This document shows, piece by piece, positions 40,931 through 48,781 of a stretch of DNA of 64,000 bases (within the stretch, counting starts at the first letter, position 1; every line of letters starts with the position of its first letter). The notes beneath the pieces were generated by a model. The model saw only the letters and a list, made by a program, of their open reading frames with translations. It did not search any database and was not told where the DNA came from. This DNA comes from Anaerolineae bacterium. GTDB lineage: Bacteria > Chloroflexota > Anaerolineae > Aggregatilineales > Phototrophicaceae. Both the position numbers and the translations under genes were made by a program. The stretch covers positions 57,104 to 121,103 of the forward strand of contig JAJEAA010000031.1 in assembly GCA_022824365.1 (NCBI GenBank), written 5' to 3'.

Positions 40931-41027
40931 CCTGGACGCCGACACTATCAGAATACCGCTCTTTTTTCCATAATACGCTACAGTGTCCGCCACTGTCGCA
41001 TTCCAAACAGCCGGTAGAGGCAGTTCC

Positions 41028-42143
41028 ATGTCAATTGCCCTGTCCCCGCTTCAACTGCGTCGACTGCGTCTGCAAAATCAGTTACTGTCCGAAAATTCCC
41101 GCTCGGCTTCGACAGCGGAAGTCGTCCGCCGGCTCTGCGCGCTGCAATCGCAGGAGTGGCCCTCGGCGCAACTTGCGATTCACGCTCGCGCGGGCGGTAT
41201 CACCCAGGCGAGTGTGATTCAAGCCCGCGAGGTGGAGCGCGCCTTCGTCTTGACCTGGAGCCTGCGGGGCACGCTGCATCTGGTCGCGGCGGAAGATATC
41301 CGCTGGCAGCTCGCGCTCTGTGGAGCCGGCGCCATCCGCGGCACGAGACGGCGCTATCAGCAACTGGGCTTGACGGAAGAGTTGCGTGAGCGAGGGCTGA
41401 GGGAGATGGAAGCGATCCTCGGCCATGACGGTCCTTTAATCCGCTCGGCACTGGCGGAAAGGCTGGGCGCGCGCGGCATCCCGGTCGAGGGACAAGCGAT
41501 CCATCATCTCGTTCGCTTCGCGGCTTTGCGCGGGCTTATCTGCCTGGGACCGGAAATCGACGGCGACTTGACATACGTCCTGCTGGATGACTGGCTGCCG
41601 GCCGGGAGAACCATTCGCAAGCCGACCAACCCCGCAGCGGAACTGGCGCGGCGTTATCTGCGGGCTTTTGCGCCGGCGACCGCGGAGGATTTCGCGCGCT
41701 GGTCGGGCTTGGGCAAAAGGGTGATCAAAGCGGCTTGGGGCGCTATCGCTGGCGACTGCGTCACAGTGGCGATCCCGGATGGCGAGGCGCAGATGCTCAA
41801 GACACAGCTTGAACAGCTTGACGCGGGGACGCCCGAAGCTGTCGTCCGCTTCCTGCCGCGCTATGACAATTATCTGCTCGGCTATGTGAGCCGCGCTTTT
41901 ATGGTGGCGGACGAATATGCCAAGCAGGCGCATCCGGGCGGCGGTTTGATCCGCGCCTGCGTCATTATCGATGGCGAAGCGAAAGCACACTGGAAGCTGG
42001 AGAAACGGCGGGCGGCTATTCGCCTGGTCGTCGAGCCTTATGAGAACCTGAGCGGGGCAGAAGCGGCGTTGATGGAAGCGGAAGCGGGGTCGCTGGGCGG
42101 TTTCCTCAACACCAGCGCCGAATTGCGGATAGAGGACGCTTAG
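41028..42143 (+). CDS. Winged-helix DNA glycosylase-like protein (YcaQ/AlkZ, DUF1006 family)
   Basis: 371 aa from ATG 41028. LRRLRLQNQLL...VVRRLCALQSQEW...TWSLRGTLHLV matches the YcaQ/AlkZ N-terminal pattern. Confidence 0.7.
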   Translation: MSIALSPLQLRRLRLQNQLLSENSRSASTAEVVRRLCALQSQEWPSAQLAIHARAGGITQASVIQAREVERAFVLTWSLRGTLHLVAAEDIRWQLALCGAGAIRGTRRRYQQLGLTEELRERGLREMEAILGHDGPLIRSALAERLGARGIPVEGQAIHHLVRFAALRGLICLGPEIDGDLTYVLLDDWLPAGRTIRKPTNPAAELARRYLRAFAPATAEDFARWSGLGKRVIKAAWGAIAGDCVTVAIPDGEAQMLKTQLEQLDAGTPEAVVRFLPRYDNYLLGYVSRAFMVADEYAKQAHPGGGLIRACVIIDGEAKAHWKLEKRRAAIRLVVEPYENLSGAEAALMEAEAGSLGGFLNTSAELRIEDA

Positions 42144-43497: not shown

Positions 43498-44289
43498 CTA
43501 GAGTTCCAAGTCGATATCGTTTTCGACTCTCAGTATCCCCTTTGGAGACAACGTTACTTCATTTGTATCCTTGTTAAAGAAAATTAGTTCGGACTGATGT
43601 AGCGGAGTTAGTACCTTACTCTTGAAGCGAGTGAGGTTCTTATACTCAATCGATTCTCGCAGAACCTCAACCGTCTGCTTATTTGTCGATTCGCTATACA
43701 GTAAGACCAGCACCTTATCTTTAGCAAGTAGTGTTCCCGACGAAGGTGAAAGTACTCGTTTGAAACCATCCACCTCCCAAATAAGAGGAATGTTCTTTGT
43801 AGACAATTCCTGTACCATCTCTCGCGCTTCCTTTAGCGATACGTGTGGCGATAATTTGTGTAACAGTCGGACAAGTTCTGCTACAACCCAGTCAACACTA
43901 GACCGCACCAGAGTTGCATCCATGAAGTTGGGGTCGACGTTGCCAGGAGTATGACCTACGCCGCGTTTGTTGCGAATATTAAAGATGGAGGCGAGGATAT
44001 CTGGAATGTGGAATCGAATTGAATCGTCCAGACTCGAGTCGCTTTCGAATTTGCGAACCTTACCCTTGAAATTCTGGATATGAGTTCCATATGGGGTGAA
44101 ATCATTGCTCGCACTTGTATGCCATTCCAGCAGACGATAGACGTCTTCACAGAATTTTGCACCATTCAACTCTGATGGCTCGTACATATTCAGAACATAA
44201 TAGCGCTGAATCTCGAGATAATGCTTTCGCATGCGCCGCCGTATGTCGACGGGAACGGTTGCGAAGACTTGATCAAATCGATCGGTCAT
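43498..44289 (-). CDS. Abi_C/HEPN-like protein with C-terminal winged-helix-like module (cassette gene 3)
   Basis: 263 aa from ATG 44289, with ATGA overlap onto the upstream gene. IRNKRGVGH at 43951-43974 is the RNxxGxGH form of the HEPN Rx4-6H motif seen in Abi_C domains, followed by ATLVRSSVDWVVAELVRLL. C-terminal ~100 aa end EVTLSPKG. AT-rich. Confidence 0.65.
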   Translation of the reverse strand: MTDRFDQVFATVPVDIRRRMRKHYLEIQRYYVLNMYEPSELNGAKFCEDVYRLLEWHTSASNDFTPYGTHIQNFKGKVRKFESDSSLDDSIRFHIPDILASIFNIRNKRGVGHTPGNVDPNFMDATLVRSSVDWVVAELVRLLHKLSPHVSLKEAREMVQELSTKNIPLIWEVDGFKRVLSPSSGTLLAKDKVLVLLYSESTNKQTVEVLRESIEYKNLTRFKSKVLTPLHQSELIFFNKDTNEVTLSPKGILRVENDIDLEL

Positions 44290-44828
44290 GATTCGTCGTT
44301 CTCGGAAAGCCACTTAGCGATTAGATTCTCACCCTTCGGAGCAAGCGTATAACCGTGCTTACGACTTTTCCTGTCCAAAAGGCCACGACTTTTCAACGTC
44401 CTTAGGGTAGCAGCAGCATCAGAGGGTTGCTTTTGACCGGTCGCTCTACATGCTTCAACTACAATCTCGGGAGTTATCCCGCTTTCTCTAAATTCGCCAG
44501 GACCGTGAATCTCGAAAACATACGCGAGGAAAGTGACGAAAGTCTGCTGTTTGGCAGTTTTCAGGTCTTTGTCTTTCTCGTTGGCAATCGCGAACATTTC
44601 TTGCCTGTAATCCCACTGTTCATCGACTTCCTCAAGTGCTTCACCTGTCGAAGCAGCCGCAACAATCTCCCGCCTGATTGAATCGCCGTTGGGCATGCTC
44701 GGATCCGACAGAAACGCCCTGCACAAGTTATCTACTATCGTAGGGCGTAGCAGCGGATCATACTTTTCCGCTACAGCCACTATGTCGCCCATTGCGTCGG
44801 TCAAAAGCTGACACTTGTCCTTGCTCAT
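44286..44828 (-). CDS. Hypothetical protein, paralogue B (cassette gene 2), winged-helix-like C-terminus
   Basis: 180 aa, AT-rich. Alignable along its length with the 188-aa upstream protein. Ends KHGYTLAPKGENLIAKWL. No named family recognised. Confidence 0.6.
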   Translation of the reverse strand: MSKDKCQLLTDAMGDIVAVAEKYDPLLRPTIVDNLCRAFLSDPSMPNGDSIRREIVAAASTGEALEEVDEQWDYRQEMFAIANEKDKDLKTAKQQTFVTFLAYVFEIHGPGEFRESGITPEIVVEACRATGQKQPSDAAATLRTLKSRGLLDRKSRKHGYTLAPKGENLIAKWLSENDES

Positions 44829-44867
44829 GTTTCACCTCACTTTTACAATCTTGCTGCCATCATCATT

Positions 44868-45434
44868 CTACGAATCAGACTGCTTCAGCAAATTGTTCTT
44901 CACATAATACTTGCCGTGGCCTGTTAAGCTAAAGCCATCGCGCTTGCCACCTTGCAGGTACTTCTTGTTCTTTCGCTTTGCATTGTTTAGCGCCGCCAGC
45001 GGATTACCTACCGAATGGCCAACCGTCAAGCATGCTTCCTCAAACTGTGCCAGCGTAATCGATTCCACTCGATGTCCCATCGGAGCCAAAACTGTGTAAA
45101 AGTACACAACCGCCGCTCCAAACTCCACTCCGTCCTTTTCTCGCAGGCCAAATTCTTCGGCTAACTTTGACAGCTCCTCGGCTTCATTCCAAACTGAAGC
45201 CTCCATTTGCACTGGTTCTCTCACGATGTCAGACACGCCAGGAATCTGTGATTCGCCATGGCGCTGGGAAGCAGCGCTAATGTCGTCAATGTCCACTACC
45301 CTGCCATCCATTAGAGTTGAATAAGCCGCACGGAACACATCCCTTTGAACATGCGATGGGAAGAGCTTTAATTTGGACGCAATTGGCGCTAGCTCTGTCA
45401 TAAGCATGTCGTATTGTTCCTTACTCATCTGCAT
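44868..45434 (-). CDS. Hypothetical protein, paralogue A (cassette gene 1), winged-helix-like C-terminus
   Basis: 188 aa, AT-rich, with GAGG-containing leader and an upstream promoter-like TTGCAA-N16-TATACT. Ends RDGFSLTGHGKYYVKNNL. No named family recognised. Confidence 0.6.
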   Translation of the reverse strand: MQMSKEQYDMLMTELAPIASKLKLFPSHVQRDVFRAAYSTLMDGRVVDIDDISAASQRHGESQIPGVSDIVREPVQMEASVWNEAEELSKLAEEFGLREKDGVEFGAAVVYFYTVLAPMGHRVESITLAQFEEACLTVGHSVGNPLAALNNAKRKNKKYLQGGKRDGFSLTGHGKYYVKNNLLKQSDS

Positions 45435-45467
45435 ACCTCATTTTCTCTGATCTAGAAAGTTAGTCAC

Positions 45468-45495
45468 AGTATAGCATAACGAAGAATACTTGCAA
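45468..45495 (-). promoter_or_regulatory. Sigma70-like promoter of the three-gene cassette
   Basis: Minus strand reads TTGCAA-N16-TATACT. The -10 ends 34 nt upstream of ATG 45434. Confidence 0.45.
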
Positions 45496-45624
45496 GACAC
45501 AAATCGACAAACAGAAATCCAGCAATGCAATATGTACACAATTTGCGTTATCTCATACGTATCAGCGTTATTCTACCATGACTTCTAGACTTGTCAATTT
45601 CTTGGGTTTAGCCGCTCTACGATT

Positions 45625-45690
45625 CGCGGCGTGGGCGACCAGGGCGGCGATGTTGGCAAGATCGCCGCCGGTCAGGATACGCGTGGACTC
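45625..45690 (-). pseudogene. Possible second, more degraded copy of a maeB/PTA-type 3' end
   Basis: GC-rich patch in AT-rich surroundings. Minus-strand translation reads RILTGGDLANIAALVAHAA. It shares gtgggcg, ggcggcgat and atcgccg strings with the 46134-46199 remnant. Similarity is weak. Confidence 0.35.
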
Positions 45691-45705
45691 TCCGCTTTGA
45701 TTCCG

Positions 45706-45714
45706 TGTTATACT
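45706..45714 (+). promoter_or_regulatory. Extended -10 element of small-protein copy 1
   Basis: TGTTATACT is homologous to the copy-2 element. The -35 is weak (TGGACT with 19-nt spacing). Confidence 0.35.
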
Positions 45715-45735
45715 CTAGGCGACACAGGAGGACAC

Positions 45736-45963
45736 ATGGCCACAGAGAGTTTACACAATCGGCTGCCAGCGGTGGAGCAATCGGTCGCCCGGCTTGAAGG
45801 CGCTTACGAGCATGTGGCGACTAAAGCCGACTTGGGAGACGTTAGGAGTGAGATCGCGACATTGGCTGCCAGAGTGCAGCTATTGCAGTGGATCACCGGC
45901 ATTGGTTTCACGGTCATCGCCGGTTTGCTCATCCATATGCTAGGAATAATTGCCTCGCTATAG
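45736..45963 (+). CDS. Small coiled-coil protein with C-terminal TM anchor (DUF1640/XhlA-like), copy 1
   Basis: 75 aa from ATG 45736 (AGGAGGA upstream). VARLEGAYEHVATKADL coiled-coil, then WITGIGFTVIAGLLIHMLGIIA TM helix. Paralogue at 46258. Confidence 0.65.
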   Translation: MATESLHNRLPAVEQSVARLEGAYEHVATKADLGDVRSEIATLAARVQLLQWITGIGFTVIAGLLIHMLGIIASL

Positions 45964-46010
45964 CGCTTGCGCCGGTGCGGCGAAATCCCCCTACCCTCGG
46001 TATCAAATCA

Positions 46011-46061
46011 GCGAGCGACTCACAGGGGCGCGTAGACACTGCCCGTCAGTCGCCCCTACAA
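46011..46061 (+). repeat. REP-C element (GCGAC...GTCGCCCCTACAA)
   Basis: gcgactcacag...cagtcgcccctacaa, the extended variant of the hairpin found at 46078. Confidence 0.65.
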
Positions 46062-46077
46062 TTGACACGCGGATTTC

Positions 46078-46104
46078 GGGCGACTCACAGAGTCGCCCCT
46101 ACAA
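46078..46104 (+). repeat. REP-C element
   Basis: gggcgact cacag agtcgccc hairpin followed by ctacaa. Confidence 0.8.
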
Positions 46105-46133
46105 ATCCTGAGGTTAAGCTGTACTACCCACCC

Positions 46134-46199
46134 CGCCCGTGGGCGTCGACGGCGGCGATAGCGACGATATCCTCGACATCATCGCCGGCAGCCCAGAAG
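46134..46199 (-). pseudogene. Decayed duplicate of the maeB 3' end
   Basis: Minus-strand translation reads FWAAGDDVEDIVAIAAVDAHGR. Intact MaeB ends LQAGDDVEDIVAIAAVAAMDAHAREG (46526-46600). Confidence 0.8.
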
Positions 46200-46207
46200 C
46201 GCGCAAA

Positions 46208-46236
46208 TTGACAGCTTTGAACCTGCTTGTTATATT
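46208..46236 (+). promoter_or_regulatory. Near-consensus sigma70 promoter of small-protein copy 2
   Basis: TTGACA (46208-46213), a 17-nt spacer carrying an extended -10 TG, then TATATT (46231-46236). Lies 22 nt upstream of ATG 46258. Confidence 0.55.
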
Positions 46237-46257
46237 GAGGGCGAAACAGGAGGACTC

Positions 46258-46461
46258 ATGGCAGCAGAGAGCTTGGAAAGCCGAATTGCGCCGGTAGAGA
46301 GATCAGTCGCGCGGCTTGAGGGCGCGTATGAGCATCTCGCGACAAAAGCCGACATCGCGGCCGTAAATGCCAAGCTGCAACTCTTGCAGTGGATCACCGG
46401 CACCGGCTTCACCATCATCGCCGGCTTGCTCATCCACATGCTAGGAATAATTGCCTCTTAG
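46258..46461 (+). CDS. Small coiled-coil protein with C-terminal TM anchor (DUF1640/XhlA-like), copy 2
   Basis: 67 aa with AGGAGGA upstream and a strong promoter-like element at 46208-46236. VARLEGAYEHLATKADI and WITGTGFTIIAGLLIHMLGIIA. Confidence 0.7.
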   Translation: MAAESLESRIAPVERSVARLEGAYEHLATKADIAAVNAKLQLLQWITGTGFTIIAGLLIHMLGIIAS

Positions 46462-46479
46462 CTTCGGCCCCGACGCTAC

Positions 46480-46504
46480 GGGCGACCCAAAGGCCGCCCC
46501 TACA
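46480..46504 (+). repeat. REP-C element
   Basis: gggcgacc caaa ggccgccc imperfect hairpin followed by ctaca. Lies 22 nt from the maeB stop. Confidence 0.7.
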
Positions 46505-46525
46505 TTTGATAGGTGGGAAGTCTGG

Positions 46526-48781
<2,256 letters not shown>

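Follow-up and report, generated by a model that had tools for sequence, protein, structure and literature searches.

An unnamed two-gene family pairs winged-helix partners with a predicted Abi_C-like HEPN ribonuclease in bacteria and archaea

In a contig of an Anaerolineae bacterium of the Chloroflexota (JAJEAA010000031.1), an AT-rich cassette of three co-directional open reading frames (ORFs) on the minus strand, encoding 188, 180 and 263 amino acids (aa), has a G+C content (GC) of 0.477 compared to 0.605 in its flanks, and raises the question of what kind of system these genes constitute. The stretch that was analysed, here called the window, comprises 64,000 nucleotides (nt) of this contig (positions 57,104 to 121,103), and coordinates are those of the window. 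An earlier note on the window had described a low-GC cassette of three genes on the minus strand, in which two paralogous proteins (g1 and g2) accompany an Abi_C/HEPN-like protein (g3), and the ORFs were found where it had placed them and with the sizes it had given. The cassette is more than a chance arrangement, conserved homologues of all three ORFs being found in the same order in many genomes. The cassette is a genuine member of a large, widespread and unnamed two-gene family, in which a partner gene precedes an effector gene that probably encodes an Abi_C-like HEPN domain. The parts of the cassette are the following.

44868..45434, minus strand: g1, partner paralogue A; ORF of 188 aa, homologues supporting 186 aa from 45428
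44286..44828, minus strand: g2, partner paralogue B; 180 aa, three-part layout like g1, translationally coupled to g3, hypervariable component of the cassette
43498..44289, minus strand: g3, effector; 263 aa counted from the ATG
44286..44289, minus strand: ATGA stop/start overlap of g2 and g3, read in the sequence; translational coupling
43795..44289, minus strand: N-terminal all-alpha domain of g3, residues 1-165; Abi_C-like HEPN candidate from the AlphaFold 2 model, Foldseek and weak Abi_C matches
43951..43974, minus strand: RNKRGVGH, putative catalytic R-N-x5-H (Rx6H) HEPN motif with R106, N107, R109 and H113
43498..43794, minus strand: C-terminal winged-helix domain of g3, residues 166-263 plus stop codon; wing V-T-L-S-P-K-G, matched by Foldseek to MarR-family winged helix-turn-helix (wHTH) proteins

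The conserved core of the family consists of two genes, partner and then effector, and the duplicated partner of the window is a lineage-specific feature. Among the 81 loci with enough upstream sequence to look for a partner, a recognisable partner-family gene adjoins the effector in 61, and two or more partner genes, up to four copies, are present in 13. From the three-gene system with a duplicated partner that had been proposed, the pairing of partner and effector is thus retained, whereas the unit that is conserved has two genes. In 50 of 57 loci the partner gene ends close to where the effector gene begins, its stop codon falling between −20 and +15 nt relative to that start, and in the window the two overlap in the ATGA that the earlier note had pointed out. 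The linkage of partner and effector runs in both directions, since the five partner homologues that were detected independently of g3 each lie upstream of a g3 homologue (5/5); the earlier note had set beforehand that partner homologues occurring mainly in prophage regulatory contexts and apart from g3 would count against the system. In a mirror-tree comparison the similarity matrices of partner and effector correlate with r = 0.66 (permutation maximum 0.14), the partner evolving far faster. Being adjacent, co-directional, closely spaced or overlapping and co-inherited, the two genes have the layout by which type II toxin-antitoxin (TA) pairs are defined. No third gene family was found to recur in the neighbourhoods.

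In six further loci, mostly of Bacteroidota, the upstream protein is longer; it begins with a double zinc ribbon and resembles the partner only faintly. Zinc-ribbon partners of 320-385 aa were located in Bacteroidota-type loci at L028:6887-7846, L035:6044-7198, L046:6956-7990, L062:6884-7993 and L065:6941-8005; in these the double zinc ribbon (Pfam DZR, best E 2e-8) replaces the helical hairpin of other partners, and the protein of L065 has partner-family similarity at E 0.001. A different elaboration is seen at L094:1978-5173, where four tandem partners of 185, 180, 179 and 181 aa precede the effector in the order g1-type, g2-type, g1-type, g2-type, and this alternation implies that the g1-g2 pair was itself duplicated.

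The proteins stand outside named families, as the earlier note had supposed for g1 and g2: none of g1, g2 and g3 gave a meaningful match to models of Pfam, NCBIfam, PADLOC or PHROGs. A word-indexed search with g3 returned 100 clusters, all named 'hypothetical protein' and none with a Pfam domain, and an exhaustive profile search of 1.84 billion representatives returned 1,523 clusters at E ≤ 0.001, of which 1,103 at E ≤ 1e-10. Counted in this way at 50% identity, the g3 family comprises at least 1,500 clusters, and the best 150 of the 1,523 are proteins of about 255 aa or fragments. In a collection with one genome per species, 260 stretches with g3 homologues were confirmed. The hosts belong to the bacterial phyla Chloroflexota, Acidobacteriota, Actinomycetota, Proteobacteria, Bacteroidota, Planctomycetota and Patescibacteria and to the archaeal Nitrososphaerota and DPANN, with Dyella, Pedobacter, Dyadobacter, Streptomyces and Leeuwenhoekiella among the cultured genera. 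The archaeal homologues (L009, L011, P0045 and P0061, from Nitrososphaerota, Woesearchaeota and Aenigmarchaeota) are 44-46% identical to the Chloroflexota effector and most bacterial homologues only 34-40%; the closer similarity of the archaeal proteins implies transfer between both domains of life.

The N-terminal domain of g3 is probably an Abi_C-like HEPN and a predicted catalytic ribonuclease (RNase), since three independent lines, motif, profile and fold, agree in this assignment, each of them being below significance when taken alone. The motif RNKRGVGH at 43951-43974 and the following ATLVRSSVDWVVAELVRLL are present as the earlier note had reported, and g3 also contains the peptide EVTLSPKG. 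Across 143 g3 homologues R106, R109, E48, D124 and R141 are invariant (100%), and H113 (99%), N121 (97%) and N107 (95%) are nearly so. The sequence R106-N107-K-R-G-V-G-H113, with Arg106 encoded at 43972-43974 and His113 at 43951-43953, is of the HEPN type Rx4-6H with a polar residue after the arginine (Rx6H), and R-N-x5-H is the commonest spacing among Abi_C proteins. In SadR, a validated Abi_C RNase with the motif RNEYGDAH, the R, the N and the H are each required for RNase activity and phage defence (PMC13590631). That the canonically spaced R, N and H, along with E48, D124 and R141, are kept almost without exception in over 140 very divergent sequences is the mark expected of an active site.

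Profile searches gave weak Abi_C matches in 24 of the 66 g3 family members scanned, with a best E of 0.0018. These matches span the motif and the helix that follows it (profile positions 36-76 of 83; 15.6 and 15.8 bits in two examples), and the next most frequent family matched only 4 of the 66, with no other family recurring. In the AlphaFold model of g3 (mean predicted local distance difference test score, pLDDT, 91.3) residues 1-165 are all-alpha and residues 166-263 form a beta-hairpin and a winged helix. With the whole two-domain protein as query, Foldseek matched the N-terminal half to the HEPN structures 2hsb (probability 0.91), 2q00 (probability 0.85, template modelling score 0.60), 4nqf, AbiV and Csm6 in the PDB, and the C-terminus to MarR-family wHTH proteins with a probability of about 1.0 and a root-mean-square deviation (rmsd) of 1.8-3.5 Å over 68-77 residues. 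The top-ranked matches, to PCI-domain proteins (eIF3, CSN, Rpn6), were rejected at a probability ≤ 0.3 and an rmsd > 14 Å, and are taken as coincidental, both architectures placing a winged helix after a helical domain. Against viral structures Foldseek returned small winged-helix matches only.

Several observations count against the HEPN assignment and must be set beside these. The g3 protein of the window matches neither Abi_C nor any HEPN model at E ≤ 1, and the Abi_C scores of its relatives (15-16 bits) are under the Pfam gathering threshold of 24 bits for this family (PF14355), for which reasons g3 is here called Abi_C-like and not a member of Pfam Abi_C. Every Foldseek E-value against HEPN structures was above 0.1 and none reached E ≤ 0.001, profile searches of the effector family and of its N-terminal domain against PDB sequences gave chance-level matches only, and the motif is modelled at a helix end and in a lower-confidence loop (pLDDT 67-82). 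The earlier description of g3 as Abi_C/HEPN-like is borne out by the conservation of the motif, by the 24 relatives and by Foldseek, but not by any Abi_C match of the window protein itself. Lactococcal AbiJ was assigned to HEPN by similarly weak HHpred evidence and superposition on 4NQF (PMC13064643).

Judged by common intermediates and profiles, the partners g1 and g2 are true but very distant paralogues. The earlier note had found them alignable end to end; BLASTP gives no direct alignment of the two, and their relatedness becomes apparent through intermediates and profiles instead. In single-sequence phmmer searches g1 finds L006_-1 at 5e-12, which is a g2 orthologue at 2e-36, and iterative searches seeded by either protein converge, with 70 hits in common of 79 and 73. 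End-to-end alignment of g1 and g2 with intermediates such as P0103 displays the invariant residues A134, G139, L170 and G174. Orthologues of g1 in the databases begin at its second methionine (MSKEQ..., start 45428), two codons in, corresponding to 186 aa. The AlphaFold 2 model of g1 has a helical hairpin (residues 5-43), a disordered linker (45-79) and a winged-helix C-terminal domain (80-188, pLDDT > 90), and Foldseek matched it to generic winged helices only (Rio2, MarR, MntR, TubR and the helix-turn-helix of the retron-Eco1 effector), all at E ≥ 0.35. Nothing recurrent emerged from profile searches of the partner family against Pfam and the PDB, and no nucleotidyltransferase (NTase) family was matched by g1, g2 or 58 partner homologues. 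An AbiJ_NTD4 match in one of the 58 was taken as chance, as it was not reproduced in a spread of partners. Pattern scans of metagenome and viral collections seeded with the partner returned nothing, the partner being too divergent for such scans.

Winged helices are predicted at the C-termini of partner and effector alike, and the common C-terminal module that had been proposed for all three proteins holds at the level of the fold, but not of the sequence: hhalign places the wing motifs of the partner domain and of g3 in register at E 0.006 and a probability of 6%. Such values speak for a fold that the two have in common rather than for a common origin. It had further been claimed that all three proteins end in G-x-x-L-(T/S/A)-x-x-G, and here g3 departs from the description, since its wing E-V-T-L-S-P-K-G is without the first glycine of G-x-x-L-S-x-x-G and 12 more residues follow EVTLSPKG.

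What, then, might such a pair of genes do? We give slightly better than even credence to the reading that the cassette is a TA-like or abortive-infection-type module, in which an Abi_C-like HEPN RNase is gated by winged-helix partners; the RNase activity, the neutralisation by the partner and the defence phenotype are steps that we infer. The R-N-x-R-G-x-G-H of g3 would form a metal-independent or Mg-assisted RNase site upon dimerisation. The partner, in which a flexible, frequently basic linker joins a helical hairpin to a winged helix, would be made in fixed stoichiometry with the effector by virtue of translational coupling; one or more partners would bind the effector and hold its RNase off, and the partner winged helix would probably also repress the operon. 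Infection, or loss of a labile partner, would release the RNase, which would then degrade cellular or phage RNA so that growth stops. A mechanistic precedent is provided by type IX retrons, where a winged-helix protein encircles and silences the HEPN active site.

The genomic setting of the cassette bears on this reading and on its alternatives. Accessory behaviour of the conflict type, visible in its GC, in its mosaic domains, in neighbours such as OLD/Gabija/PARIS-type ATPases, methylases, AbiEi, integrases and transposases, and in a terminase remnant and RhuM at the same hotspot, counts in favour of the reading. In 63 of 79 loci the GC of the cassette falls below that of the surrounding sequence (median difference −7 points), and the cassette is horizontally mobile. 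In at least 12 related Chloroflexota assemblies it occupies one site, between a malic enzyme gene and CDF transporter/AlkZ-like genes, where the flanks are 82-91% identical, g3 43-62% and the partners 25-41%. Compared to the cassette of L095, g3 is 86%, g1 67% and g2 37% identical, and no nucleotide match is left over g2. Mosaic recombination is evident within single genes: the g2 of L093 is 83% identical to that of the window in the N-terminal hairpin and 20% in the C-terminal half, and the two halves of g3 are uncoupled, with identities of 71% and 32% between L088 and L015 and of 80% and 81% between L089 and L015.

Part of the evidence runs counter to the favoured reading. No partner domain co-varies with any effector domain among eight syntenic cassettes, a small sample in which the pairs are non-independent. 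This, together with the 37% identity of g2 where g3 retains 86%, is contrary to what one would expect if toxin and antitoxin co-evolved tightly at their interface, so that g2 is weakened as a tightly co-evolving cognate antitoxin of g3; the missing domain co-variation appears to argue mildly against a highly specific interface. A tblastn search with g3 matched none of 72,556 plasmids and 50,697 phage genomes, and the viral collection yielded only two contigs with a g3 homologue. The defence and mobile-element content of the neighbourhoods is modest: in raw counts, flanking genes across the family include OLD/Gabija/PARIS-type ATPases (4/143), integrases (4), methylases (3), AbiEi (2) and transposases (2), and many housekeeping genes are also among the neighbours. 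In both viral contigs (IMG/VR, L086 and L087) a partner-family gene lies upstream of the effector homologue.

The partners may alternatively be swappable sensor or adaptor subunits and no antitoxins, activating the g3 RNase where the favoured reading has them inhibit it. In such a 'split AbiJ' they would take the place of the variable N-terminal domains of AbiJ, their variable heads and winged helices serving to recognise a nucleic acid or protein of phage origin. We regard this as unlikely, though deserving of serious weight. The exchangeable head of the partner, a helical hairpin in most loci and a double zinc ribbon in Bacteroidota, fits such a role, and so do its hypervariability, mosaicism and multiplication up to four copies while the effector core is conserved. 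The missing co-variation with the effector points the same way, and in the AbiJ family the HEPN domain as a rule comes joined to a variable N-terminal domain (PMC3710099). A small partner that comes first and is tightly coupled in translation is, however, the classic layout of antitoxin and toxin, the lone AbiJ_NTD4 match among 58 partners was not reproduced, and neither profile nor Foldseek searches revealed features of an enzyme or of a ligand-binding protein in the partner.

One may also speculate on a combinatorial recognition system, in which the three winged-helix modules and the partner heads would be exchangeable specificity determinants, reshuffled through recombination at a fixed chromosomal hotspot, with two to four partners gating one conserved HEPN RNase. 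Each strain would then carry a combination of its own, and the locus would act at the population level as an 'allele-shuffling' innate immune locus, with a logic like that of hsdS shufflons or polymorphic toxin loci but centred on an RNase; we put forward both the system and its population-level role tentatively, as improbable proposals.

It is, in our opinion, rather doubtful that the cassette is a selfish addiction module without a role in phage defence, a TA pair that would chiefly ensure its own persistence, or that of the variable island lying downstream of the gene for malic enzyme. Its low GC and patchy distribution across phyla and domains, its TA-like layout, the integrases and transposases among its neighbours and a hotspot marked by insertion scars, RhuM and the remnant of a terminase speak for such an element. 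Addiction modules are common on plasmids, however, and the family is on 0 of 72,556; moreover, the extreme diversification and the partner duplication are more suggestive of an arms race against some outside antagonist. It is very improbable that the three winged-helix proteins form a non-toxic DNA- or RNA-binding complex (a transcriptional regulator or xenogeneic silencer) with a non-catalytic HEPN-like domain for binding or dimerisation. In favour of this are the winged helices of all three, the fact that no enzymatic family is matched at the curated thresholds of Pfam, PADLOC, NCBIfam or PHROGs, and the existence of HEPN domains that lack catalytic function (PMC3710099, Table 1). HEPN domains that are inactive, however, have typically lost the R, N and H that are nearly absolute in this family, and a mobile and mosaic family that keeps to a hotspot does not behave like a housekeeping regulator.

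In its effector chemistry and overall logic, the TA-like or abortive-infection-type module favoured here is of a known kind, a HEPN-based conflict system. New in relation to the libraries and literature searched are the family itself, the order of HEPN followed by winged helix, the dedicated partner family and the multiplication and shuffling of partners. The closest resemblance is to the AbiJ/Abi_C RNases (PF14355; S. aureus SadR), with which g3 has in common the R-N-x5-H spacing and a glycine position (RNKRGVGH versus RNEYGDAH), the weak Abi_C matches on the motif region in 24 of 66 relatives, an all-alpha HEPN-like domain and a patchy, accessory distribution. The order of domains is different, since the HEPN-like domain of g3 is N-terminal and followed by a winged helix, whereas AbiJ has a variable N-terminal domain and a C-terminal HEPN (PMC3710099, PMC13590631). 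AbiJ and SadR are furthermore single-protein systems, whereas the g3 family has a translationally coupled partner gene in most loci, and its relatives score below the Pfam threshold, the window g3 is unmatched and PADLOC does not recognise the cassette.

The type IX retron (Retron-Kva2) likewise places a HEPN-fold nuclease beside a separate winged-helix protein, which silences the HEPN until infection. In the retron, however, the HEPN is without an Rx4-6H motif, the winged-helix protein binds it through two alpha-beta domains that the partners of the cassette do not have, and the system requires a reverse transcriptase (RT) and multicopy single-stranded DNA (msDNA). No RT gene was present in the cassette, nor among the genes called next to it at 12 related loci, no non-coding RNA (ncRNA) of Rfam was matched in the cassette and no tandem repeats were detected within 43498-45640. 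A retron ncRNA was rejected on these grounds, and so was a type III TA system (AbiF, AbiV or ToxIN-like), given the empty Rfam scan and the lack of a repeat array that could encode an RNA antitoxin.

HEPN-MNT (HepT-MntA, type VII TA) is similar in being a two-gene operon with an Rx4-6H HEPN RNase toxin and a small upstream partner that neutralises it, but the MNT antitoxin is an NTase that AMPylates the toxin, the partner of the cassette has no NTase signature and the cassette effector carries an extra winged helix. AbiE (AbiEi/AbiEii) and other type II or IV TA systems with winged-helix antitoxins resemble the cassette in their upstream antitoxin with an autoregulatory winged helix and in their overlapping or closely spaced genes, and an abortive-infection role is a feature of these known systems. 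In AbiE, however, the toxin AbiEii is an NTase and not a HEPN protein, the winged helix of AbiEi is N-terminal and there is no sequence relationship to the cassette. In RnlA-RnlB and LsoA-LsoB a HEPN-domain RNase toxin is held by a small labile partner and acts in anti-phage abortive infection; these toxins are, on the other hand, much larger and of three domains, the antitoxin lies downstream and winged-helix modules are absent. Scans of the family libraries detected no sequence or profile similarity between RnlA-RnlB or LsoA-LsoB and the proteins of the cassette.

Should the favoured reading be correct, a large unannotated family, numbering no fewer than 1,500 clusters at 50% identity and drawn from many bacterial phyla and from archaea, would join the HEPN-based conflict systems. 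Thousands of 'hypothetical proteins' could be named, models that are missing from defence-annotation tools could be supplied and the recently validated class of Abi_C RNases would extend past single-protein systems. Domain mosaicism at one syntenic hotspot with flanks about 90% identical would constitute a natural experiment on the diversification of specificity. New HEPN systems are reported regularly, which tempers the surprise, and the main interest lies in the size of the family and in the mosaicism at the hotspot.

Upstream of g1 the following promoter-like and operator-like sites were recognised.

45570..45597, minus strand: TTGACA-N16-TAGAAT, 11/12 matches; stronger candidate operon promoter, by consensus match only
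45468..45495, minus strand: TTGCAA-N16-TATACT, 9/12 matches; weaker promoter-like site, by consensus match only
45552..45565, no strand assigned: near-palindrome CTGATACGTATGAG (minus strand) with core ATACGTAT; direct TAACGC repeats on both sides, downstream of the stronger promoter-like site

The promoter that the earlier note had proposed, TTGCAA-N16-TATACT, is present in the sequence, but the site at 45597-45570 is the better one and neither rises above chance, such sites being no commoner than in shuffled sequence (2 found, 2.7 expected). The near-palindrome at 45552-45565 is a possible operator on very weak evidence: the operator search upstream of g1 yielded only its 8-bp palindrome core, and about one of this kind is expected by chance in 221 bases.

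The hotspot between the malic enzyme and CDF genes is variable in L004, L005, L006, L015, L088, L089 and L091-L095. Other cargo found there includes a remnant of a terminase large subunit (L088), a RhuM-family gene (L093) and genes for a GFO/IDH oxidoreductase and AP_endonuc_2 (L095), and in different genomes one to three copies of a beta-helix/Chlam_PMP-like gene of 262-264 aa. In the window, the interval from the cassette to the malic enzyme gene contains a tandem duplication of about 500 bp (45630-46600). Its units each encode a small coiled-coil protein that ends in a transmembrane helix, of 110 aa (45631-45963) and 67 aa (46258-46461); the two are 70% identical and have only a weak DUF2721 match, and these small duplicated genes are absent from the syntenic L004, L005, L006 and L015. 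The last 40 nt or so of the malic enzyme gene (46560-46600) recur in degenerate form at 46149-46189 (83%) and 45632-45672 (61%). The GC-rich gene-end remnant that had been reported beside the cassette does exist, and its identity can be refined to these degenerate copies of the malic enzyme 3′ end within the tandem duplication. The repeated 3′ ends look like serial insertion scars at the end of that gene. On the other side of the cassette, the AlkZ-like gene by the CDF transporter (40983-42143) also seems to evolve, or to be exchanged, unusually fast, since its identity in the comparison with L004, L005 and L015 is only 52-64%, against 82-91% for the malic enzyme and CDF genes of these genomes.

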